This document shows positions 15,097-64,000 of a stretch of DNA of 64,000 nucleotides, piece after piece. Where the stretch lies: NCBI GenBank assembly GCA_944324245.1, contig CALUVO010000009.1, forward strand, positions 19,793 through 83,792, read 5' to 3'. A model generated the notes under the pieces. It was given only the letters and a program-made list of their open reading frames with translations. It had not been told where the DNA came from and made no database searches. The stretch comes from Candidatus Gastranaerophilales bacterium. GTDB lineage: Bacteria; Cyanobacteriota; Vampirovibrionia; Gastranaerophilales; Gastranaerophilaceae. The first letter of the stretch is position 1, and every line of letters begins with the position of its first letter. The position numbers and the translations under genes were made by a program.

Positions 15097-15174
15097 GGGA
15101 TCGTAGCTCAGTTTGGTTAGAGTGTCTGCCTGTCACGCAGAAGGTCGCGAGTTCGAGCCTCGTCGGTCCCGCCA
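15097..15174 (+). tRNA. tRNA-Asp (anticodon GTC), CCA encoded
   Basis: Manual cloverleaf: acceptor GGGATCG/CGGTCCC, D arm GCTC..GAGT, anticodon arm TCTGC-CTGTCAC-GCAGA, T arm GCGAG-TTCGAGC-CTCGT, discriminator G, CCA. Confidence 0.92.
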
Positions 15175-15379: not shown

Positions 15380-15402
15380 AATACATTTTTGAACTTTTAT
15401 AT

Positions 15403-15744
15403 TTATATAAGTCCCCATAAACCAGTTAATAAAATATTTTTAGGAGCTTTCACCTCTTCGTCAAGTACAGTAAATAGAGCTTTATCAAATACTTTTAAAT
15501 TATGTAACCCTGGCTCACCTGTTCCCCAAAGAAGAATATTTTTTGCGTCTTTATAAGACATTTTATAAGGATTATCTGCGTTAGCAATATTTTGTGTAGT
15601 GCTATATTTTTGTCTAAGTTTATTTACTGCTGCTTCATCCCATAAACCTGCGCCAATATTGCCATTATTAACTTTCACTCTGTACATACCGTTAGGTAAT
15701 TTCATTACATTATAATTCCCAATAATTTCAAATTGTGCAACCAT
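15403..15744 (-). CDS. Hypothetical protein (113 aa)
   Basis: A clean ORF ending just upstream of the 15350-15379 hairpin. No recognisable domain. Confidence 0.5.
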   Translation of the reverse strand: MVAQFEIIGNYNVMKLPNGMYRVKVNNGNIGAGLWDEAAVNKLRQKYSTTQNIANADNPYKMSYKDAKNILLWGTGEPGLHNLKVFDKALFTVLDEEVKAPKNILLTGLWGLI

Positions 15745-15829
15745 AAAACCAACCTTTCATCGAATCATAAATATAACTAACCTTATATTTATAAACTATT
15801 TCGTTAAGTATAAATTGCCATATCATGAT

Positions 15830-15865
15830 CAGAGGATATCATATCATATCATATCATATCCTCTG
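15830..15865. repeat. Pentanucleotide microsatellite (TATCA x ~4.8) embedded in an inverted repeat
   Basis: 'cagaggatatc atatcatatcatatcatatc ctctg'. It lies about 90 bp upstream of the 15744 start codon. Confidence 0.85.
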
Positions 15866-16026
15866 TCCTAACTGGATTTGAGATTAACAAAATTTGTATT
15901 TACAAAAGTTAATATTTATAATAAATTACGATATTAGCTCAAATTCTTTAAGAATTTGAGCTATCTTTAAAAGTTGATTAAATTTATAATAACTGGATAA
16001 ATTGTTTGCATAACTTTGAACTAACA

Positions 16027-16088
16027 GTTCGAACCTGGAAGCGTCAGTTCCGCCATTATTAAAAAACTCCACTTTATGTGGAGTTTTT
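16027..16088 (+). repeat. Degenerate tRNA-3'-end-like block plus terminator (copy 3)
   Basis: 'gttcgaacctggaagcgtcagttccgccattattaaaaaa' is followed by the hairpin ctccac/gtggag and a T-tract. Confidence 0.7.
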
Positions 16089-16251
16089 GTTTCATGTTTC
16101 GGATGATTAGTGTCGAGAACTCTACAAAGTCAAAGCCCGAGAATAAAGTAGGTCGGATTTACAAATCCGACAAAATTATTTGTCAGCATAGTAATGCTGA
16201 CCTACTCCTAATAGTATAAAAACCGTATTATATTATAAATTCTTCGTTTAC

Positions 16252-16287
16252 TTACAAATCTTCTTTAGATTTTTGTTTCTCTTTCAG
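16252..16287 (-). pseudogene. Orphan copy of the last 12 codons of the tpsB-like gene
   Basis: 34/36 nt identical to 17302-17337. It still reads LKEKQKSKEDL* versus LKEKQESKKDL*. Confidence 0.75.
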
Positions 16288-16458
16288 TCAGTATATTAAA
16301 ACAATTTTTTATTTATTGTTGATTATATATTTTTTCTTCTTGCAAGATGTAAAATGAGCAATTTGTTTATGGTTATAATCTTTTAATTTTAAATTTAAAA
16401 ATCAAGTATACAGACAGGGCTAAAGTATATAGTTCGTGTTTCAGCTCGACAATAATCA

Positions 16459-17067
16459 TTACTTCAATTCTTCTGCTTTGTACACAGAATAACCTTCATA
16501 ATGGTAACTTGCATCAAGGCCTTTCATATAGACTTCTCTGCTACTGATTTCTGTAGTTAATGCTTCTTTTAAAAGGGCTTTTATTTCCACGCTTTTAATT
16601 GGACTTCTTTCCATTGCCAATAGATAATCTTCCTTGTCTATTTTGCTCCAATCAACAACTTGCCCTAACTCTTTTTTTAAAATCAAATCAAGCCAAATTC
16701 TTGCACTTCGACCATTACCTTCTCTAAAAGGATGGGCAACATTCATTTCTACATATTTTTCAACAATCTCATCAAAATTAGATTGCGGCATATTGTCAAT
16801 GTGTTCTAATGCACATTTGAGATACATAACAGGTGCAAATCTAAAATTACCTTTTGCAATATTTACAGTTCTTATTTCTCCTGCAAAATCATAGATTTCA
16901 TCAAACAAATATTTGTGAATAAAAGCTAGAGATTCAAATGTTCCAACTTTCAAATCGTAAATAACCTTGTTCTCAAAAAGCTCTATTGCCTTAAGCTTAC
17001 TTATTTTTTCTTCTACTCTAAAAAGCTCTGTTGAATCAGTTATTCCTAATTTGTTTTCTAAAGTCAT
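16459..17067 (-). CDS. Fic-family protein, class III-like (AMPylase/Fido domain)
   Basis: Contains the Fic motif 'HPFREGNGRSAR'. The C-terminal 'SYHYEG' fits the (S/T)xxxE(G/N) inhibitory helix motif. About 200 aa, single domain. Confidence 0.85.
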   Translation of the reverse strand: MTLENKLGITDSTELFRVEEKISKLKAIELFENKVIYDLKVGTFESLAFIHKYLFDEIYDFAGEIRTVNIAKGNFRFAPVMYLKCALEHIDNMPQSNFDEIVEKYVEMNVAHPFREGNGRSARIWLDLILKKELGQVVDWSKIDKEDYLLAMERSPIKSVEIKALLKEALTTEISSREVYMKGLDASYHYEGYSVYKAEELK

Positions 17068-17182
17068 AATTACCCCTATATGACTATTCTATCATAAAAA
17101 TTGTTAATTAGTTTGCTTATCTTTAAAGAAACTATAGATATATAATTTGTTTGTAAATTTTGATAATATCTCTTCAACAAAA

Positions 17183-17243
17183 GTTCGAACCTGTGAGCGT
17201 AGTTCCAGCAATTATCAAAAAGAACCCAAAAGGGTTCTTTTTT
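17183..17243 (+). repeat. Degenerate tRNA-3'-end-like block plus terminator (copy 4)
   Basis: 'gttcgaacctgtgagcgtagttccagcaattatcaaaaa' is followed by the hairpin gaaccc/gggttc and a T-tract. Homologous to 16027-16088 but with a different hairpin. Confidence 0.7.
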
Positions 17244-17301
17244 GTCTTTTGGACAGCTCTTATTAATAATTTATTTGTCAATAAATTTACTAAAAGTGTA
17301 A

Positions 17302-18468
17302 TTACAAATCTTTTTTAGATTCTTGTTTCTCTTTCAGATTCCGGCGCAATTCGAGTATCCTGTCAAAGTCAGGAGCCAGTGATAATTCAAAGCTGAATCT
17401 TGGGTTCCTTCTGTAAACCTCGTGGTTGTTGTGCATCAACGGAATACCCCAGTATAATCTGGCGGAAGCATCGGCCGGAAGTGCAATTCTTAAACCAAAA
17501 CCGCAGCTGACTATGTAATCATCAGAGTTGTAGCTTCTTGCTCCGGGACCTTCGCCTTTAAACGGATAAATACCGGCGTGGTCGATAAATAGAACACCTT
17601 TTATGTATTTGCCGAGGAAAGAAACTTTTCTTTTTTCTCCGTTCTTTTTGTTTTTCAGCGTAATCGACTGCGGCGCAAGAGGAAAAACAAGCTCTCCGCT
17701 TAATATATAACCGGAACGGCCTATTAACAAACCTTCCGAGTAACCTCTGATTGTAGCTAGACCGCCTGCTTGAAACTGGTCTATGTAAGGCATGACATCG
17801 GTAGGTGAATACTGGTATGAAGCTCTGAATTGACCTACGATTCCATGGCTGAAATCGTGTAGCCTGATTAAACTTCCTGTGTATTTAAAATATTTTGAAT
17901 TGTCATCAAATATAGGGAATGCGTGGTATACACCCTGATTTAAGTACCAAATGCCTCTTTTAGAATCATATCTTGCGCTTAACGCTGTTTCCGCACTGGC
18001 TATTTTGTCTGTGTAAAGACTGAAATCACCGAATCTTGTGTTTGCCTGCTTGTAGTTGATTGCGGTGTAGCTGGTCAATTCAAAGTTCGGTTTTCTAATA
18101 AGCGGGTGTGTATAGTACAAAGAATATGTGTATGAACGGCTTTTGATATCAAATATTTCATAAGGGCCTTCGCCGATATTTGCAAAGCTGGATGAAAATG
18201 TAAACCCGACCCTGCCGTCATACTTGTTTACGGGAATATTGTAATCAGCAAAAGGGGTCACTGAGTATCTGCTCACATAGCTGCCTATTGACAATCTGTC
18301 ACGCTGCCCGAATAAGCTGTCTGCTGCCAGCATCAGCCCGCCTCTGAGCTCTCCTATAGTTTTTCTTCCGGCATTATCCATCAATGCCACTACATGGAAA
18401 GGATTTTTTTCTTTAGCCTGAAGGTTTATATCTGTTGTTGCTGTCGGTTCGGCAGAGGGAAGTCTTAC
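17302..18468 (-). pseudogene. ShlB/FhaC/HecB-type TpsB transporter, 5'-truncated (signal peptide and POTRA region missing)
   Basis: The frame is open only to 18468 (389 codons at most, versus about 550 typical). It starts within '...TDINLQAKEKNPFHVVALMDNAGRKTIGELRG', the barrel-entry region of the TpsB family. It has beta-barrel-like alternation to 'RFSFELSLAPDF'. Confidence 0.7.
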
Positions 18469-21400
18469 TTATAATACGGATAACAAACTTGATATCGGTG
18501 AAAAAGGAATTATTGCTTCCGACAAAGATGTAATAATAAACTTTGATAACGGAACAAACAGTTTTAATGCAAGAACCAAGTCTGTTAAAGTATCAAGATT
18601 GTTATTTGGTATACCTATTACTGACACCAATGAGAGAAGTAATATAACTAAAAATTACCAAAATGCAATGAATTTGGACGGCGAAGTTTCAGCCGGTATC
18701 GGTTCACAAAAATACATGCAATAGACAAAGACGGAAATATTGTTAAAGATTCATTAAAAGGCTTTAGCGATAAAGATTATAAACAGGAAGAGGCAGGAAA
18801 TAAAACTTCTGCCGAAGTTACACAAGATGCAATTGACTCTATAGAAGTTCAGCAGGATTATTTAGAATCCCAGCTTGCAGCGCTCGAGGAAGATAAGGCA
18901 GCAAATCAGGAAAAAATTGAGTATTATCAAGCTCAAATTGCTGAACTTCAAGAAATTATAAATAATTATAAAAATACTGAAAGAATTTCAGAAAACGAAG
19001 TTAATACATCTATAGAAAATAATATAAAAAATAATATCGTTTCAAAGGCCGGCACCGGTGCTGATGGTTCAAGTCTGCCGGCAGATGCCTATACAAAAAT
19101 ACAAGAACAGTACGAAAATAAAATTGCAGCAGCAGAGAATAACTATAATGCTGTTATAACCGATGCTAATAAAACTCAGGAAGAAAAAAATGATGCATTT
19201 AACAAGTATCAGGAAAACATTAATAATGCACTTAAAAATGTATTAAATGAATATAGATATACATATACGATAACTGACAGTGAGGGTAAAACAGAAACAA
19301 AAGAAACAGTATTGAGCCCGTCTCAAATAGATAATATTCTTGCTTTTGTCGAACAAGAACATGGTAAATATTCAGTTGATTCAAACGGTATGGCAATGTA
19401 TAACGGTAAAATTGTAGACAATGATTCTTATAATACAGCTATATCTAATGTAGAAAACCAAATAACGGATTTGAAAACCCAACAAGAAGTTTACTCGAAG
19501 GCAAATGAGCAAATCGCTGAAAAAGCATTTGATTTGAGCAAACAAATTTCTGATTTAGATAAACAAATAGCTCACTTAGAAGATAATCCGCTTGACGGAA
19601 TAGAAATATCAAATGCGTATATTGAGTTTGATGATATTATTACCCAAACACCAAAAATAGAAATCACAGGTATCACAAAAGATAACCTGAGTGGTGATGG
19701 CGAGTTTAAAATTTATCTCCCGGGATTGACTATAGACAATTATTCCAACAGTGATTTGATTTTCAATGTTGTTAACCTTGCCGCTAGAGAAAACGGCGGA
19801 TTAACAATAGGCGGAGTAAGCTTTGATTCTTATCTTGATACTGGTAAACCAATTGCTGACAAGGTTCTATACGTAACAGAAAGAAATAATGATGCGATAA
19901 AAGATAATACAATTACAATAAATAATTATTTTGACCATAACAATCCGCTAAATGCAGGTAAAAATCCATCTGATATTATTTTTAATAATATAGTTTCAAC
20001 ATCTGACTTAATCGATATCTGGAATGAAAGCGGAGATATAACCTTCAAAAATGCGCTTACTTCTGACAGAAAGAGTATAATCGCAGCTCAGGGCAATATT
20101 GTATATGACAATCAAAATACTGATTTTGCTCTTAATAAGGCTGATGACAGAGTTATCGCAGGACAAAATATTACAATTAATGCAAATAATATTAAAAACA
20201 ACGGTACAATTAAGGCAGGTCGTGATGTCAGAAATATCACCATCACAGATGATATGCTCAATAACCTTGTCTATGACCCGACAACAGGCAAGACAAATCT
20301 TATTAGCTTAGGCGGCAGTGACAAGTCTGCTTATCTCAATGACAACGGCAATAACATAAAAGCTATCTACGAAGACGGTAAAATTAAATTGTTTGTTACA
20401 TCTCAAGATGGCGGCAATATTGACTTAAACGGTACTGTCACAGGCAGCGGAACCGTATCTTATACTAACGGTTACAGTGAGGTTAAAGTTACCAATAATA
20501 CTGATAAAACACTTGTTATAAACGATTTTAATAACAACAAAATGAACGGATCACTGGATAACGCAGCAGATACTCTGACAGTAAATAAACTGGGCAAAGA
20601 TTCTGCTGTTACAACAATAGTTTCCAATGGAAAAATAGAAACATCAGGTGTTATCCAAAACGGCAAAGACGCTTTAAACAATCCGTCCAATAACAGCGTG
20701 CTTACTTTGCAGTCAGAAAACGGTGTTTTAATTAACGCTCTTAATGACGGGCTTGGAAACAGAATAAATACTATTGATTCTGTCGGCTTGTTAAATGTTG
20801 TAAACAATAATGCTTCATCTGTAACAATTGACGGTACTGTTCAAAATACAGGTGATATTAAGATACAAAATTCCGGTGCAGACGGCCTTGTTATAACCCA
20901 AAATGGTGTTGTCAACAACAATGACGGTAATATAGAACTCGTAAACAACGGTAATGAAGGTATAGTTGTTTCAGGCACTGTGTATAATGCAAACGGTTCA
21001 ATAAAACTTGACAACCAGAATACTCAGGCAGGAATACTTCTTGACAGCACAGGCTTTGTTCACAATGATAAAGGCGGAGATATAACAATCCAAAATATTG
21101 GCGCAAACGGTACTGTTATTCAGGGTATTGTTCAGGCAATAGTTGATAAAATTAATTTAATAAACTCTGATTCTGATATCCTCATCGGTGACGATACAAC
21201 TAATGACAAATATCTGAACGCTTTAAATAATGATATAAATATAACAATAACAAATGGTGATTTATTGAATTCCGGCGTGGATAAAACGTTAATAACAGCA
21301 GGTAAAGATTTAAATATCAGCGTCACAGACGGTGATATCGGAACAACCGATAATGCGATTGCCGGTAAAAAACCGGGATTTGGCATAAATGCTTCAACAA

Positions 21401-23334
21401 GGGATAAAACAGAATCAATAAATATCAACGTAAAAGGTAAAATCACTGCCAGTGCAGAAAATAATACAAAAACGGATGACAGACTCATCAACCTTACCGC
21501 AAAAGATTCGGATATGAAACTTAATCAGATAAAAGCTGACGGAAATGTCATTCTTACGGCTGCCGAATGGGATACGGAAGACAGAAATCCAACACCCGGA
21601 GAATATGATCCGGAAAACTATTTTACCGGATATTCAATTATTAATGCTGCAGATGATAAAACACAGCCAAATATTGTCGGCAAGAACATATCTCTAATTT
21701 CGAGCAATGATATAGGTTCATCAGATAATTACGTAACCTATGAACAAACAGGTACGGACAATGATTACTTTAGCGCAGAGGCAGAAAATGACCTCTATGT
21801 ACAAGGTATGGGTGATAAATCCAATATCTGGCAGCTGATATCAAAAAGAGGTAATATTGCTTTATCATTTGACGGTGATTCCGTAATAAGAGAACTTACA
21901 AGCGGAAAAGATATTCAGATAGTAAGCAAAGGTAAAAATCTCACTATTTATGATATAGGCAGAGTCAGCCATATTCTTGATCCTATGGATGACATTCTCT
22001 ATCCTCACGACAGAATCGAACTCTCATCTGTTGTCCCTGAAACTGTTAATATCGCAGTTTTAGATGCCAAGGGCGGAGAAGATGCTTATTCAACATTAAA
22101 TATATATAATGCATTTGTTAAAGGTACAAATGATGATAAAGCAGACGTTACATTAAAAGCGGATAAAATAATTGCTCATGCGGCAGAAGCAGCAGACTCG
22201 GTTATTTCAAACGCTGCAAGACCAAATGGATTTGATGCAAGTGAGGGCAGAGATTATCACGATGATTTGAGTGATGATACATCTGAAATCCTTTTTGCAA
22301 CAGGTTTTAATACATCAGGTGACGGTGCTCAGCTTACTTTTGATGTAGGCGGGGTATCACCGGAGCTTGTTGCTGCAGTGAATGAAGATATTAACGGCAG
22401 AAGCTACAACAGTCAGGAGGTAATTGAACCTGTATATATCTTTAACAATGAATACGGATTTAAAGATACTGTATATAAAGCAAACGATGTTACTTTGTCA
22501 TTGAATTCATCTTCCGAATCACCTGCAGATAACAGAGGTATGTATTTTGACAAACTGTATACAGACAATGCATATATTGATACAAAAGATTTGAATCTTG
22601 ATTTAAAAGATGCTTTTGTTACTAATTATGCTGAGTTCAGAAACGGTAACTTGAATGCTGATGCAGGCGGTCATATTGTTGGTGACGGATACAGATGGCT
22701 GACAATTGTTGACAACGATTATCAAAGAAATCTTTCATCAATATACGGAATTAATTTGACATCACAGCTCTATACAAAACTTACCGGTTCTTTCGGCTTG
22801 CATATGGGTAATTATATAAGCCAGCTGACAAAAGCACCTGTTGTTTATTACAATCCGTATGTTGTTGTTAATATTCCGCAGACGGAAAACAGTTTCTACA
22901 GATTGACTTACAAAGATGACAAAATCCAAAAAACTACAACAACACCGGAATTTGAAGATATAAACAAAGATACATATAAACCGACCAAACGTCAAAATAT
23001 CAGATTCTCACTCGGTAAAGACGACAAAGAGGTGCAAATAGCAAACAGACGTATTATCAGCATTATAGATATTTCAAAAGGCGGCCTTGCCATAGAACAT
23101 GACGGTTCTTTGAAAAAAGGCGAAGAGTTTGTTATTAATCTGACTTATCATGATGTTACGGCATCGCCAGAGGTTCGTGTAGTCAGAGTTAACGGAAACA
23201 AAGCAGGATTGCAGTTTATAAATCTTGATAATGCTACAGCAAACAAAATCCTTTACATAAACCTGTCGGCTTCTAAAGAGAATACTGATATAAATTCTTC
23301 GAATAAAGCAACTATGATTATAGAAAAATTGTAA
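18461..23334 (+). pseudogene. Giant beta-helical repeat (FhaB/TpsA-like) protein with C-terminal PilZ domain; 5'-truncated and frameshifted
   Basis: Frame 2 is open 18422-18724 (TAG at 18722). Frame 1 is open 18652-23334 with no start codon before TTG 19312. It contains repeats such as 'AGQNITINANNIKNNGTIKAGRDV'. The C-terminus has 'RQNIR' and 'DISKGG'. Confidence 0.7.
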
Positions 23335-23340
23335 AAATGC

Positions 23341-23385
23341 ATATAGTCAGTTAGTTTATACGATAGTTATACTAACTGACTATAT
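23341..23385. repeat. Perfect 15-bp-arm inverted repeat after the giant gene
   Basis: 'atatagtcagttagt' (23341-23355) pairs with 'actaactgactatat' (23371-23385) around a 15-nt loop. No T-tract follows. Confidence 0.8.
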
Positions 23386-23472
23386 ATGAAACTAACGGTA
23401 GCTTTATGACTTTAGCCGGAATCTTTTCTAAATGCAACTAATTTAGTAAAAATTGTTTAGAGACTTTTTTTA

Positions 23473-42154: not shown

Positions 42155-42555
42155 TCTAGTGTTGCAGTTGCCGCCTGCGGTCTTGAAATCAGACGTTCGG
42201 AAAAGCGTGGATTCCCCTCACAAGGGGCGTTCCCTCTCTTCGTTCATTCTGCCCCGTCTGATTCCGCTTTCTTGAAATTTCTTCTCGCTCGTTGCTGCCG
42301 CTGACTATGCTTTGCTACCGTCTGCTTGCATTCGCTCACCGGGTTTCACCCGTCCGGAATTTCGCTGACCGCAGCCGGCACCTGCTCACTTTTGAATTCT
42401 TTTGCCTCTGTGTCGAACAAAAGTTGACTAAATGTCATATTTTAAGAGAGGGGCTAAGTGAGATACGAAGTATCTCCGTGCAGTATAAAAATTGGAAACT
42501 GTCTGAGCGTGAAGAAAATCCAAGACGTAGTCGGAGTCAGTTGACGATATGAAAT
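42155..42555. repeat. GC-enriched, multi-hairpin, ORF-free composite repeat region
   Basis: The 14-bp outer stem 42167-42182 / 42367-42381 encloses hairpins at 42188/42255, 42214-42227 and 42340-42352. It shares blocks with 37716-37739, 61618-61645 (inverted) and 31805-31826. Confidence 0.6.
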
Positions 42556-60325: not shown

Positions 60326-61141
60326 TTATTCATTGTTCTGCTCTTGTGTCTTCTCGTTTATCTTCAGAGTTCTTCTGATAAATTGCGCAGCAAGATCGTT
60401 AATAATAAGAAACTGATAAAAAAGTACAAAAGGTATTGCCAGTATACCAACTATAGTAAGTGTGAGGATAAAATTAACTATATTAGCCATTATTGTAATA
60501 GCAAATATGAGTAACAAATAAATAAAATATTCAAAAAAGTTTTTGGTAATAAATTTTTTTATAAGAGAAAAATTGAAAAAAGAAGCAAATTTTAGATTTG
60601 TGCAAAAAGCTAAACTGGATGAACTTATTAAAACTACAGCAAAAATAAATATAATCAGTGCTAAAAAAGTCATAAATATAAGACTTAATATAATAGCAGC
60701 TTTATTCTGCACATGTATTGTTATACAAAAGAAAATCAGAGGTGCCATCCAAATTATAAAAAGTACAATGCAGTATATACAAATAGCAATATTCGACTTT
60801 AATCCGAGCCAGAACATATCAGCCCAGCCGGTCCAATCCGGCAGAGGCGCATCCGGTCTAAATATTCGCAAATTAATATTTCTTGCAAAATACCCGCTTG
60901 AAAATATACCGAGTACAATGCAGATAATGAGTAGAACAAAGCCTGCAATCAGTGCATGTGGCAGCAGGTGTATGTACTGTTTTAGCTGTTCTGATTTTAA
61001 ATCGCTTATATATCTCAAAGCATAGTTTAAGATATTCATAACAGCAACGCACACCATAAACAAAGATCCGATTATCAATTTCTTTTTGCAATCCTTGTCT
61101 TTGAACATATAGCTGATTGCATTATCTATATTTAAAAACAT
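60326..61141 (-). CDS. Polytopic membrane protein (DUF4013-like)
   Basis: The N-terminus 'NAISYMFKDKDCKKKLIIGSLF' resembles DUF4013 starts. About 6 TM segments. Confidence 0.45.
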   Translation of the reverse strand: MFLNIDNAISYMFKDKDCKKKLIIGSLFMVCVAVMNILNYALRYISDLKSEQLKQYIHLLPHALIAGFVLLIICIVLGIFSSGYFARNINLRIFRPDAPLPDWTGWADMFWLGLKSNIAICIYCIVLFIIWMAPLIFFCITIHVQNKAAIILSLIFMTFLALIIFIFAVVLISSSSLAFCTNLKFASFFNFSLIKKFITKNFFEYFIYLLLIFAITIMANIVNFILTLTIVGILAIPFVLFYQFLIINDLAAQFIRRTLKINEKTQEQNNE

Positions 61142-61211
61142 AGTTTCACTCCTTTATCCTTGTTATTGGGATATTATAGCATATTTACAAATTCTGCTGT
61201 AAAATTTTTTT

Positions 61212-61409
61212 ATGGTATACAAGAACAAAATGAATGAAAAATGGAAAATATGCAGTTTCTGTAAGTATATAAAGTTCTGTACAGCCGGACAGGGCAGGAT
61301 ACAGGATCTTGCTGACAATCCTGTAGCGTATAATGACATAGGCTGCTTTGATTATGAAATATATAAAGTGTCCGCTGCCAAAACAAAGCAGCTTGGGTTG
61401 TTTAAATAA
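61212..61409 (+). CDS. Small Cys-containing hypothetical protein (65 aa)
   Basis: An ORF with 'CSFCKYIKFC'. No RBS is evident and it ends 4 nt before the tRNA-Gln promoter -35. Confidence 0.25.
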   Translation: MVYKNKMNEKWKICSFCKYIKFCTAGQGRIQDLADNPVAYNDIGCFDYEIYKVSAAKTKQLGLFK

Positions 61410-61412
61410 TTC

Positions 61413-61441
61413 TTGACATGAAACTGTGTGCTCGATACTAT
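61413..61441 (+). promoter_or_regulatory. Sigma70-type promoter for tRNA-Gln
   Basis: TTGACA (61413-61418), a 17-nt spacer, then TACTAT (61436-61441). The tRNA starts 46 nt downstream. Confidence 0.6.
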
Positions 61442-61486
61442 ATATATTACGGATGATTTGGGTGCCCGGTAATAAAAACAGAATAT

Positions 61487-61562
61487 TGGGGCGTCGCCAA
61501 GTGGTAAGGCAGCTGGTTTTGGTCCAGCCATTCCGGAGGTTCGAATCCTTCCGCCCCAGCCA
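61487..61562 (+). tRNA. tRNA-Gln (anticodon TTG), CCA encoded
   Basis: Acceptor TGGGGCG/CGCCCCA, anticodon arm GCTGG-TTTTGGT-CCAGC, T arm GGAGG-TTCGAAT-CCTTC, discriminator G. Collinear with the E. coli tRNA-Gln layout. Confidence 0.9.
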
Positions 61563-61588
61563 AAAAGCTCTCACATGAGGGCTTTTTT
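61562..61588. terminator. Terminator hairpin after tRNA-Gln
   Basis: 'aaaaagctctc acat gagggctttttt'. Confidence 0.7.
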
Positions 61589-61592
61589 ATTG

Positions 61593-61925
61593 CGGAAGGA
61601 TTCGAACAAGTTCTCATCCCCTCTCGTAAATATGACATTTAGTCATATTTACTCGGCAGAGTGCCTCAGCCAAAAAAAGCTCTCGCGAGAGGGCTTTTTG
61701 TTTTTACGAAAGGATTCGAACAAGTTCTCATCCCCTCTCGTAAATATGACATTTAGTCATATTTACTCGGCAGAGTGCCCCAGCCAAAAAAAGCTCTCGC
61801 GAGAGGGCTTTTTGTTTTTACGAAAGGATTCTTCGATTCCCCTCTCGAAAAACGATACTCAATCGTTTTTCTCGGCAGATTGCCCCAGAAAAATAAAAAG
61901 GTCTACATTGTAGACCTTTTTATTT
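61593..61925 (+). repeat. Three tandem 114-bp units, each with an inverted T-arm fragment, a variable hairpin, a copy of the tRNA-Gln 3' end and a terminator
   Basis: Units are at 61593, 61707 and 61821. Units 1 and 2 are nearly identical. Unit 3 has the same flanks but different hairpin and terminator stems. Confidence 0.85.
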
Positions 61926-62425
61926 TTCTATTGGACGATGGATGAGAACCGCAGGTGAGAATCGCGCGAGTGAGCAGAGTGTACTTTTTTGTCCAGTTTG
62001 ATTTGTGTGGATAGATAGATTATTTGGGTAAAGTTGGCTTTGTATGGGAGATGCCGGATAGAAAAAATTAAGTTTACTAAAATAATCAAACTGGAAAACT
62101 TTACTTTTTCTAGACTGTACGGTGTAAAGAAACTGGACAATACAGAAAATGGGAACTTGCCTCAAAGCCCCTCTGTGTAAAGGAATTTTAGAATAATTTA
62201 GGGTTACAGAAAAGTCCGGTATGTCCGATTTGTAGGACTACTATACTCACAAAAATGTAAAAAGTGGAAGAGAAGATGCCCAATAGCCTTATTTCTGTAA
62301 GACAATACCTGATAACAAACATAGGACTTTTGCCGTCAAAACATAACACGAGTTCCGTAAAAAATATTTTTCTGCCACAAAACGAAACTATAACGGAACT
62401 TTTTTAAGGAACCAAACGGAACCTG

Positions 62426-62737
62426 TTATTTAGACTTTTTCTTCCCCTCAACATGTTCTTTAATAACTTTATAAACATACCTAGTGGTTGTTTCGCAGGC
62501 TAGGGCAATTCTATTTACGCTTGTTGCATCAAGATAATTCTCAATAATATACTGCTTTTTGTATTGTTGATTGCAATGAGCATGGATTGAAAACTTTTCT
62601 CCTGCTGCATAGAACATTAATTTTTTAGTTGCTTCTAAGCCAATAATAGAGCAGAGATATTTTAAATCTTCTGTCGGCAAATTCTCTTCACTTATGTATT
62701 TTAACCATACAGGTTCTGTTTCAGAATTTCTAACCAT
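62426..62737 (-). CDS. Mor/repressor-like HTH protein
   Basis: The C-terminus 'SVNRIALACETTTRYVYKVIKE' is an HTH like the Mu Mor family. The start is set at ATG 62737. Confidence 0.5.
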   Translation of the reverse strand: MVRNSETEPVWLKYISEENLPTEDLKYLCSIIGLEATKKLMFYAAGEKFSIHAHCNQQYKKQYIIENYLDATSVNRIALACETTTRYVYKVIKEHVEGKKKSK

Positions 62738-62762
62738 ATTACACCTTATCTTAATTATAGTA

Positions 62763-62790
62763 CAAACGGAACCCAAGAAGGTTCCGTTTG
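62763..62790. promoter_or_regulatory. Palindromic operator candidate in the divergent promoter region
   Basis: 'caaacggaac(c) ..caagaa.. (g)gttccgtttg' has perfect 10-bp arms. The half-site AACGGAAC recurs at 62352-62358 (rc), 62392-62399 and 62414-62423. Confidence 0.5.
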
Positions 62791-62955
62791 GTTACGTCTG
62801 AAAAATTTTCTTAATACATCAAATATTTTGTTTTTTCAATATCACTTAAACAGTGATTTTTGAGCATTGAAAAAATCAAAACTAATATGTTTCGATATGG
62901 ATACATTGACTACACTTTTGAAGAAAGCAGAGTTAATGTGTGTGAGGAGGAAAAT

Positions 62956-63665
62956 ATGCAAACTTCAAACGTTGACTGGATTACAACTAAAGAACTTGCC
63001 GTAATTAAAGGAGTATCTGAAAGAGCTGTTCGTAAAGCCATTAGTAAAAACAAATATGTAATCAGAAAATGCTCTAAATCTTATGAAATTTTAGTAACAT
63101 CTTTAGAAGAAAATGTTGGAGAAAAAATAACAGCATCAAAGAAAAATCTGCTTTAATAACTCCGATATCGTATATTGTTCCGGAAACACAAAAGAAATTT
63201 GCTCTTGCAAAATATGATTTAATCAAAAAATGGGATGAATTTAGAAAAGGTAAGAAAAATAAAACAATTGCCGGAAAAGATTTTCTTGACGCATATAACA
63301 ACAATTGTATTTGTGAAGAATTATTTGATGTAATAGGCAAAGTTGCAATCGGAACAATTTACGAGTGGCATAAAAAACTCCGTAACTACAATGACGATTG
63401 GCATTGTTTAATTAATAATTATACTTTTTGTGAAAAGACTAAAAAAACATTAATGAAACCTGAAGAGGAAGCGGAATTACTTAAAAATTTATTTCAATTA
63501 ACCATGGCATTTTATTCTTAAAAAATAATTATTATGATGAAGCTCTATTCGGGGACAAAAAAGAAGTCATTATCAAATATAGCCTGTTCAACTTAAGTTC
63601 AATTAAGGTTTATAAATTGAACGGAGAATTTTTGTGTGAGGCAAAAAGGGTTGAAGCTATACTTC
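62956..63665 (+). pseudogene. MuA-like DDE transposase remnant: N-terminal HTH domains, frameshift, stop, internal deletion, short C-terminal fragment
   Basis: 'WITTKELAVIKGVSERAVRKAI' (62956-63156). The frame shifts by -1 to 'PETQKKFALAKYDLIKKW...IGTIYEWHKKLRNY' (to TAA 63519). Then comes 'KEVIIKYSLFNLSSIKVYKLNGEFLCEAKRVE' (63532-63665). No DDE core is present. Confidence 0.6.
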
Positions 63666-63901
63666 CTCTGGCAACTTGCTTGACCTATATAAACAACTTC
63701 TTTTGCACTATCATCAGTAGTACCATTGAATAAAAAATAGATTCCTGATTGCTTTAATTCTTTTCTGTCACTACTTTTCTTCAAATCTTCTCTGTTAATT
63801 TTGAATGCAACGCAAGTTGTTCCGGCAACAGAACATTTAATTCTTTTATTAGGCTTCCCATCCATTAGAAAAAGTTTTATTGTTTTCTTAAATTCAGCCA
63901 T
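63666..63901 (-). pseudogene. GIY-YIG nuclease-family gene, 3'-truncated at the junction with the transposase remnant
   Basis: 'MAEFKKTIKLFLMDGKPN...SGIYFLF...EVVYIGQAS', after which the frame runs into the antisense of the transposase fragment. RBS 'ggag' lies upstream of ATG 63901. Confidence 0.5.
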
Positions 63902-64000
63902 TTTTACTCCACTTTTTTTTAATGATAGCATAAAAAACAAATCTTTAAATTTGTAAACCATAATGCTTTGTTTATTTTAGCGAAAAAGCTCCTAAAGTAA

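Follow-up and report, generated by a model that had tools for sequence, protein, structure and literature searches.

By analogy of function, the closest described counterpart of the element reported here is the integron attC/cassette system, including the integrase-less attC clusters (CALINs). As with attC, the site folds into a hairpin whose ends are short and conserved and whose stem varies and covaries, its arrays run in one orientation, many of its units lack an ORF while others have a single promoter-proximal gene, and an incoming cassette joins precisely where an existing site ends on its 3′ side (as at locus L130, below). As with CALINs, most arrays have no adjacent recombinase. Unlike attC, however, the core is without R″/R′ boxes (RYYYAAC ... 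GTTRRRY): its invariant blocks are CCCCTCTCG and CTCGGCAGAGT, with no AAC...GTT pair. No intI or attI was found on inspection of the ORFs within 2.5 kb of the units at 121 loci. Also in contrast to integrons, the attachment sites are inside tRNA or 5S rRNA genes, every module contains a gene-end copy, a feature that integron cassettes never have, and the site, where there is cargo, is on the promoter side of the cargo gene.

With the integrative elements that target tRNA genes, and with CIMEs (cis-mobilisable elements, of which only the att sites are left), the element shares a gene kept intact by a supplied replacement end, partial gene-end copies at the junctions, arrays that arise by accretion and a crossover in the T-loop. 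It differs from them in having no integrase, in modules of only 77-133 bp, in the use of one conserved site for many tRNAs, for 5S rRNA and for tRNA 5′ ends, and in a reverse-complement copy of the target that lies beside the direct copy. The REP/REPIN sequences and other miniature palindromic repeats (MITEs, Rickettsia palindromic elements and small dispersed repeats of cyanobacteria) are likewise short, non-coding, hairpin-forming and lineage-specific, with tens of copies per genome, subfamilies of stems and presumably mobilization in trans, but the present element has no GTAG-type REP head, is tied to gene ends by a fixed junction instead of being scattered between genes, and comes with a target duplication of 14 to roughly 190 bp.

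Tandem repeats behind a tRNA gene have a precedent in the 178-bp units 3′ of Escherichia coli tyrT, each of which starts with the last 19 nt of tRNA-Tyr. Those units too lie directly behind the gene and each holds a copy of the tRNA 3′ end, but they are a duplication at a single locus, whereas the element forms a family spread over the genome, has a conserved hairpin core and is also present at tRNA 5′ ends and at 5S rRNA genes. The element is a member of none of the systems compared (integrons, tRNA-targeting elements, REP/MITE sequences or tyrT repeats). A literature search found no description of it, and this hairpin element of gut Melainabacteria is previously undescribed.

The tRNA-Gln array

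The array that led to the family is in a window of 64,000 nt, the whole stretch of DNA analysed, from a Candidatus Gastranaerophilales bacterium (Table 1). An earlier note, made from the letters of this window, had described three head-to-tail units of 114 bp after tRNA-Gln(UUG). The tRNA is called both by ARAGORN and by the Rfam model, Tandem Repeats Finder reports the 114-bp period, and the three units are borne out; the length holds for units 1 and 2, which are 96% identical, but not for unit 3, which has 107 bp and is more diverged. The period extends over 61553-61831 (2.5 copies, 92% matches), and as 61553 begins the last 10 nt of the tRNA, the start of the array lies inside the tRNA 3′ end. 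Matches to CCCCTCTCG-N(15-45)-CTCGGCAGA number three in the window, as against none in 100 shuffles, and a covariance model of the core recovers the three copies at 57-59 bits together with a degenerate solitary one, which has a 7-bp hairpin with a TTC loop just upstream.

Table 1. Features of the tRNA-Gln array and of the solitary core, in coordinates of the window.
Feature	Position	Strand	Basis
tRNA-Gln(UUG), intact	61487..61562	+	ARAGORN; Rfam tRNA, 55 bits
Native uninterrupted site within tRNA-Gln: T-loop GTTCGAATCC; TTCC; gene end GCCCCAGCCA	61539-61548; 61549-61552; 61553-61562	+	sequence
Terminator-like hairpin after tRNA-Gln (AAAAAGCTCTCACATGAGGGCTTTTTT), A-tract before and T-tract behind	61562..61591	+	repeat family D2, inverted repeat I12
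Unit 1, left part	61592..61619	+	inverted repeat I8 (16 nt, 100%); sequence
Unit 1, core	61618..61662	+	pattern match; covariance model R1, 59.1 bits, E=4.5e-12
Unit 1, pieces of core: CCCCTCTCG; hairpin TAAATATGAC-ATTTA-GTCATATTTA; CTCGGCAGAGT	61618-61626; 61627-61651; 61652-61662	+	
Unit 1, tRNA 3′ end copy (GCCTCAGCCA, 61663-61672) and terminator-like hairpin	61663..61703	+	repeat families D2, D4; terminator scan
Unit 2, left part: ACGAAAGGATTCGAAC, AA, GTTCTCATCC	61706..61733	+	inverted repeat I9: 15 nt, 93% complementary to tRNA T-arm
Unit 2, core, hairpin type as in unit 1	61732..61776	+	pattern match; covariance model, 59.1 bits
Unit 2, tRNA 3′ end copy (GCCCCAGCCA) and terminator-like hairpin	61777..61817	+	repeat finder; terminator scan
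Unit 3, left part: ACGAAAGGATTC, TTCG, ATTCC	61820..61840	+	inverted repeat I17; sequence
Unit 3, core, other hairpin type (AAAAACGAT-ACTCA-ATCGTTTTT); 3′ block mutated to CTCGGCAGATT	61839..61881	+	pattern match; covariance model, 57.2 bits
Distal CCA-less tRNA 3′ end copy (GCCCCAG) and different, perfectly palindromic terminator (21-nt arms)	61882..61929	+	inverted repeat I7
Degenerate solitary core, intergenic	42405..42453	-	covariance model R1, 21.3 bits, E=0.004; sequence

The cores of the array are 43-45 nt long, each composed of CCCCTCTCG, a hairpin and CTCGGCAGAGT. The hairpin of units 1 and 2 is perfect, as had been noted, though its arms measure 11 nt (100% complementary) and not 10. 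Unit 3 was correctly said to differ from the others both in its hairpin (AAAAACGAT/ATCGTTTTT) and in its terminator (61887-61929), so that one array combines two hairpin types. The conserved 3′ block that had been proposed needs trimming: it holds for CTCGGCAGAGT (AGATT in unit 3), but the GCCYCAGCCA behind it was copied from the tRNA 3′ end and falls outside the conserved core. For the same reason neither 'cgRaaggattcgaac' nor 'gccccagcca' is a conserved part of the element, as both are copies of the neighbouring gene and such copies are different at every locus. The left part of unit 1 begins with the segment at 61592-61607 that the note had recognized as exactly reverse-complementary to 61539-61554 (16 nt, 100% by repeat finder); it comprises the T-loop, the 3′ strand of the T-stem and the first acceptor bases. 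AA and a direct T-loop-like copy, GTTCTCATCC (61610-61619), follow, and the reverse-complement and direct copies together form an imperfect palindrome. In unit 3 this palindrome is shorter and its centre is unlike that of units 1 and 2.

Two other loci, L166 and L066, are syntenic relatives of the tRNA-Gln locus. L166, a close relative, has one unit where the window has three, so copy number varies in nature and the three units are not obviously an assembly artefact. The CCA-less end that closes the window array also occurs in L166 and in L073; under an insertion model it is probably the original end of the gene.

One core beside many RNA genes

A scan of one genome per species, with the two conserved blocks as query, gave approximately 30 real loci among GC-rich chance matches, and a metagenome scan added 105 further loci from gut and rumen. 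The family as compiled has 145 cores in 122 loci with 79 distinct core sequences, and so the element is not unique to the window, which was one of the checks that the note had proposed. All real loci that carry a taxon name are assigned to Candidatus Gastranaerophilales, Gastranaerophilaceae, Melainabacteria or ‘uncultured cyanobacterium’, with Ca. Spyradomonas and Ca. Limenecus among the named hosts; a few loci are in bins labelled otherwise. Among 2.9 million viral contigs there was no real copy, the eight matches all being GC-rich chance occurrences without a hairpin. There is a second element family, GCGTGAGCGAGCTGAGG..., and one locus (L233) has variant core flanks.

This distribution bears on the simplest account of the array, that unequal recombination or slippage duplicated the tRNA 3′ flank in tandem at this one place, as with the tyrT repeats, with the hairpin a mere spacer, or else that the array is an artefact of assembly. 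The start of the repeat within the tRNA 3′ end and the near identity of units 1 and 2 speak for it, and unequal recombination certainly adds to the change in copy number between the window and L166. It leaves the shared core unaccounted for: the same core is found in many genomes, at over 100 loci that have no relation to each other, arrays of 1-4 units recur across independent assemblies, and different hairpin types stand inside one array. Local duplication is thus very improbable as the whole story, and as a sufficient explanation it is refuted by the family-wide distribution.

Between loci the sole conserved part is the core, CCCCTCTCG-[hairpin]-CTCGGCAGAGT, of 41-49 nt, in which the hairpin has 8-12 bp and a loop of about 5 nt. 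Invariance of its end blocks is partly by construction, as the search required both, and degenerate cores do occur, both in the most distal parts of arrays and, in the window, at 42405. Across the 79 distinct cores the stem shows 96-97% Watson-Crick pairing, with 3-6 pair types at every position. RNAalifold, run on 28 representatives, found compensatory changes at four of the five variable pairs that MAFFT had kept in register. The claim that pairing is preserved while sequence changes, made on three units, therefore holds for the family. There are at least eight stem types (..ACGATACTCAATCGT.., ..TGACATTTAGTCA.. and ..CAATTCACAGGATTG.. among them), and the 27-nt type carries a conserved C.C mismatch. 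Stem types recur across genomes and contexts, and one array can hold two of them. No GTAG, the head feature of REP sequences, adjoins the hairpin in the distinct cores examined, and readings of the core as an attC consensus, a K-turn or a class-II tRNA D-arm do not fit its sequence.

The surroundings of the core follow a rule, given here with every locus oriented to show the core as CCCCTCTCG...AGAGT. Around the core there is always a duplicate of part of a neighbouring gene's end, and the real gene, intact, is at a fixed distance upstream on the core's strand. For 82 of 144 units the uninterrupted native site was located 72-135 nt upstream on the same strand (times n in arrays), and the remainder are mostly at contig ends. 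It consists of a segment X1, then one of the pentamers ATTCC (32 cases), ACTGC (16), CTTCC (4), GCTGC (4), ATTTC (3) or AATCC (1), and then a segment X2. In the duplicate the core takes the place of 3-8 nt whose last letters are ATTCC, CTGC or a similar motif, which in tRNAs lies in the T-loop on the sense strand or in the D-loop on the antisense strand, and its left junction is always after CC. X1 is copied for 9-15 nt only and X2 is copied to the gene end and beyond, so that the AGAGT side of the core is a gene-end copy with its terminator or leader. Modules are 77-133 bp long.

Two arrangements result. In the first (arrangement A; Gln, Glu, Phe, His and Thr) the units are downstream of the tRNA on the same strand; the T-arm contains the junction, which is 14 nt (in Gln, 10 nt) short of the CCA end, and the copy comprises the tRNA 3′ end (last 10-14 nt) and its terminator. 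In the second (arrangement B; Leu with four anticodons, Val, Pro and Met) they are upstream of the tRNA on the opposite strand; the junction lies 11-12 nt into the gene, within the D-loop, and the copy comprises the first 11-12 nt and 16-25 nt of leader. The same construction is behind 5S rRNA at 11 loci, in one of which (L135) approximately 90 nt of the 5S 3′ part and the terminator are copied. The few sites away from RNA genes include one after a protein gene (L207) and the CCCCAGCC family. In all, 82 of the 145 units are within 600 nt of a tRNA, as compared with 13% of locus bases that close. The note had asked whether the units always follow tRNA genes; this is so for the five tRNAs of arrangement A, but not for the opposite-strand units upstream of tRNAs, those after 5S rRNA or those few elsewhere.

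In arrangement A a reverse-complement copy of the uninterrupted T-loop, the T-stem and the first acceptor bases precedes the direct copy of X1, and the two make a palindrome, the core interrupting its right arm. The reverse-complement copy, which is the first part in the note's description of a unit, tracks the local tRNA, even to the unusual TTCAATT loop of tRNA-Glu. A second perfect hairpin, usually with a C-G closing pair and a TTC loop, is present 7-13 nt upstream of the core in about 40 of 112 distinct left flanks. The tRNA-Thr gene is without CCA, and its units copy the genomic flank, GGTTTTGTAG..., so the duplication was made from DNA and not from mature tRNA; this also rules out a retro-copy of mature tRNA, with the associated idea of a primer-binding site. 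A CRISPR array was discarded as well, the sequence between cores being itself repeated and a copy of the tRNA flank instead of unique spacers.

Might the units be tRNA pseudogenes, or pieces of split or permuted tRNAs? Their flanks are indeed tRNA-derived (the T-arm reverse complement and the 3′ acceptor strand, or nucleotides 1-11 and 19-28), yet there are only some 10-25 nt of tRNA sequence per unit, and neither ARAGORN (29 loci) nor Rfam calls a tRNA in any unit. Deletion of the core, in 49 combinations of offsets, restores a tRNA in one of 145 cases; this is L209, where a second full-length copy of tRNA-Glu, with a core in its T-loop, lies 434 nt behind the intact copy. The pseudogene idea is refuted as a sufficient explanation and retains scarcely any likelihood.

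Structured RNA deserves more thought. Here the units would be transcribed with the tRNA as read-through trailers or as leaders and would act as a signal for processing, termination or stability, or as a small RNA. The stem covariation is strong, the transcript of tRNA plus array folds far better than its shuffles (z = -12.6), upstream units include a copy of the tRNA leader, and at the tRNA-Thr locus no terminator separates the tRNA from the units. Mismatches of the G.T type, which as G.U would be tolerated in RNA, are on the tRNA-co-directional strand in seven of nine independent cases (7 vs 2 events). This bias could reflect selection on RNA or merely mutation bias linked to transcription, and the comparison of G.T with A.C mismatches as a guide to the folded strand is confounded by the latter, leaving the tRNA-sense strand suggestive. 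Against RNA, the core is tRNA-sense in downstream units and antisense in upstream ones, so that a transcript co-directional with the tRNA would carry complementary versions of the conserved blocks in the two arrangements. Furthermore, terminators precede most downstream units and no promoter is predicted inside the units, distal units decay, and there are copies of the element behind protein genes and copies that have cargo genes between the cores. An Rfam 15 scan of 60500-62600 (E<=10) gave only sub-threshold, terminator-like matches on the units, to leader, sRNA and miRNA models, and no family was matched at two non-tRNA contexts (L035 and L190). With neither an Rfam family nor a tRNA call, the statement that no annotated class has this layout stands. 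An RNA function for the units is accordingly judged unlikely. The note had left the choice between a selected RNA or DNA structure and a recombination site with a variable palindrome undecided, and the wider evidence favors the latter.

Cargo and the search for an enzyme

That the units carry no ORF had been taken as an argument that they are not att scars. A 112-aa ORF (61575-61913) does span them, although it is merely the repeat read in one frame, so in substance they are ORF-free; the argument itself fails, as there are cargo-bearing versions at L130, L145 and L001, and in their light the window units look like empty att-type modules.

Cargo between cores is present at only 3-4 of the 122 loci. 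In L130 the order is tRNA-Phe, a normal left part, a first core, an insert of 1.1 kb, a second core and the tRNA-Phe 3′ end. The insert has one ORF of 227 aa on the other strand and then the conserved motif TTCTTCTCAAACCAACTGTT... before the second core; this layout places it exactly at the AGAGT/X2 junction and implies that it brought its own core. L145 is laid out in the same manner with a different ORF: tRNA-Phe and its terminator are followed by a degenerate unit, 1.15 kb with a 250-aa ORF, a core and the Phe 3′ end. At the end of a tRNA-Gln gene, L159 has a motif-core-X2 end like that of L130, and in L001, 2.2 kb lie between units with identical flanks.

The cargo genes are themselves found in other places. 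Members of the 227-aa family (75-100% identity) are convergent to the 3′ ends of tRNA-Phe, tRNA-Tyr, tRNA-Ser(cga) and tRNA-Val(tac) in different genomes, about 100-250 nt away, and unit-like left parts flank the gene there; relatives with 50% identity have a fixed chromosomal site upstream of dxs. The second cargo family, that of 250 aa, is ADP-ribosyltransferase-like on the strength of a Pfam match with E=0.008 only. It is mobile, with five different neighbourhoods in which the TTTTTCTCAAAYCTTGTGTTAATTTAC end that adjoins the core in L145 is always retained, and is mostly away from tRNAs. Pfam searches of the cargo ORFs gave one such weak ADP-ribosyltransferase match, one MORN-repeat match and one nothing; no recombinase was among them. 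The content is in each case a single gene, with the core on its promoter side, and the motif TTCTCAAACC..CTGTT adjoining the core is common to two unrelated cargo genes.

All-against-all clustering of ORFs, for 30 and then 121 loci, revealed no recurrent recombinase or transposase gene within 2.5 kb of the units; the only clusters are of syntenic housekeeping genes and pilins. Pfam found no transposase or integrase among 17 ORFs of the window near the array, the solitary core and tRNA-Asp, and a Mu-like look of the ORFs at 62.4-63.5 kb was dropped for want of Pfam support. The enzyme invoked below is therefore hypothetical.

These results weigh on the possibility that the units are scars of integrases, left by prophages, ICEs or islands whose interiors disappeared after integration in tRNA T-loops, with the core as a remnant of the element end. 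The T-loop is the classic position of integrase crossover, and partial gene-end copies are a hallmark of such integration; both are matched here. Cargo stands between cores in L130, L145 and L001, and just downstream of the window array, at 62.4-64 kb, there is an AT-rich stretch of ORFs without family matches. The account fails, however, on three points: none of the loci showed an integrase within it or close by; a single core frame of 20 nt is used at no fewer than 12 different tRNAs, at 5S rRNA and at sites outside RNA genes, whereas tyrosine integrases are normally site-specific; and integration into the tRNA 5′ part through the D-loop, with a leader copy, is no integrase pattern known to us. 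The cargo of single genes and the lack of a real match among the viral contigs also speak against it, and integrase scars are an improbable origin for the family.

A possible insertion module

The reading preferred here is that the element is a lineage-specific, non-autonomous DNA insertion or recombination module of Gastranaerophilales (Melainabacteria), the units of the window being without cargo; the chance that this is right is put at about even. It is preferred over structured RNA mainly because the conserved blocks are on opposite strands relative to tRNA transcription in arrangements A and B, and further because most downstream units are behind terminators with no predicted promoter and because there are cargo-bearing copies and copies away from RNA genes. 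A recombinase or transposase acting in trans would recognize the core or cross over at it, probably on folded single-stranded DNA, and strands would be joined directly 3′ of AGAGT. Modules, whether or not they bring a cargo gene, would come in through the native site or through a junction of core and gene end already in place, such entry would build the polar arrays, and recombination between units may also make the arrays grow and shrink. The three modules of the window correspond to cassettes that are empty, or to solo att junctions.

A simple crossover does not account for the 9-15 nt copy on the left side, for the reverse-complement copy of the T-arm or for the second upstream hairpin. Several models for the origin of a first unit were compared with the junctions, namely Campbell integration, a long target duplication from staggered nicks, target-primed copying and snap-back, and none fits every feature.

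A bolder proposal, offered tentatively and thought somewhat doubtful, is that of a previously undescribed cassette-capture system which resembles integrons in its working and is unrelated to them in sequence. In such a system the hairpin site (CCCCTCTCG-stem-CTCGGCAGAGT, with TTCTCAAACC..CTGTT in addition when cargo is borne) would be recombined by an enzyme into ATTCC/CTGC motifs in the T- and D-loops of tRNAs and in 5S rRNA, and the compensating duplication of the gene end would keep these essential RNA genes intact while single-gene cassettes gather alongside.

For those working with such genomes there is a practical side. The units yield tRNA-like fragments and repeats that can confuse tRNA annotation, the assembly of MAGs and binning; several of the contigs that carry them bear labels of other taxa. 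As the sequence signature is sharp and the geometry strict, the responsible enzyme should be findable by phylogenetic profiling and its reaction testable in vitro. The setting is an uncultured gut lineage, the Melainabacteria, whose mobile elements are scarcely known. The element seems to serve there as an insertion site for small gene cassettes, and if its core is a recombination site, it would represent a new way in which such cassettes find a safe landing pad in essential RNA genes.

Variant cores and the hosts that carry them

At L233, one of the other core-bearing loci, a variant core is fused to a tRNA-Tyr 3′-end copy, and because its flanking blocks differ from those that the searches demanded exactly, the family counts are under-counts. 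At L209 an intact tRNA-Glu(CUC) copy is present 434 nt upstream of the core-bearing copy, and ARAGORN calls the latter as a tRNA only once the core has been deleted. Typical units also occur on contigs titled Anaerovoracaceae or Muribaculaceae (L003, L083 and L109), and as the host range of the element is otherwise strict, these contigs may be mis-binned Gastranaerophilales.

Positions of array-associated, solitary, variant and tRNA-embedded features
Feature	Source	Position	Strand	Details
Tail after unit 3	Window	61930-61990		GGATGAGAAC, then ...GAATCGCGCGAGTGAGCAGAGTG
ORF, 112 aa	Window	61575-61913	+	spans all three units; product a repeated peptide
Degenerate solitary core	Window	42405-42453	-	CCCCTCTCT-hairpin-TTCGACACAGAGG; intergenic; flanks inspected 42200-42480
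Second tRNA-Glu(CUC) copy	L209	361-495		full-length; core in T-loop; ARAGORN call only with core removed
Variant core	L233	3725-3870	-	same hairpin (CAAAACGATACTTAATCGTTTTG), other flanking blocks (..TCTCTACG / CTGTTCGCCAACGGAGT)

Leaders and neighbours in the window

The ORF through the units is almost certainly an artefact of the repeat being read in frame. Directly 5′ of tRNA starts is ..AATAT, often accompanied by TTGACAAT (window 61475-61486; L085, L030, L045, L083 and L109), in a position too near the tRNA 5′ end for a standard -35/-10 pair, and units lying 5′ of a tRNA on the opposite strand carry a copy of this leader. The window's other tRNA, tRNA-Asp (15097-15174), is without a unit; nearby (15400-23400), a 1340-aa ORF lies together with a Fic/DOC protein and a ShlB/FhaC-type transporter in what looks like a two-partner secretion locus. 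Immediately upstream of the solitary core is a 7-bp hairpin with a TTC loop, and the minus-strand sequence downstream of the core is GA-rich, non-coding and crowded with GTGAGC/GAGCGA motifs.

The AT-rich stretch adjoining the tRNA-Gln array (62400-64000) may be a mobile-element remnant. Its short ORFs have no Pfam match; around one of them (62426-62776, minus strand) there are about five copies of the motif AACGGAAC/GTTCCGTT (62350-62800), and a AAACGGAC triplet resembling this motif lies in the 1.1-kb cargo between two cores at L130.

Array tails and a second element family

The GGATGAGAAC of the window's tail is the reverse complement of GTTCTCATCC found in the units, and similar tails follow arrays at other loci, among them L159 and L001. 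At L209 (143-250) there is an element of a second family, about 95 nt long (GCGTGAGCGAGCTGAGG...), within a partial copy of the tRNA-Glu T-loop. This suggests that the same trick is used by more than one element family.
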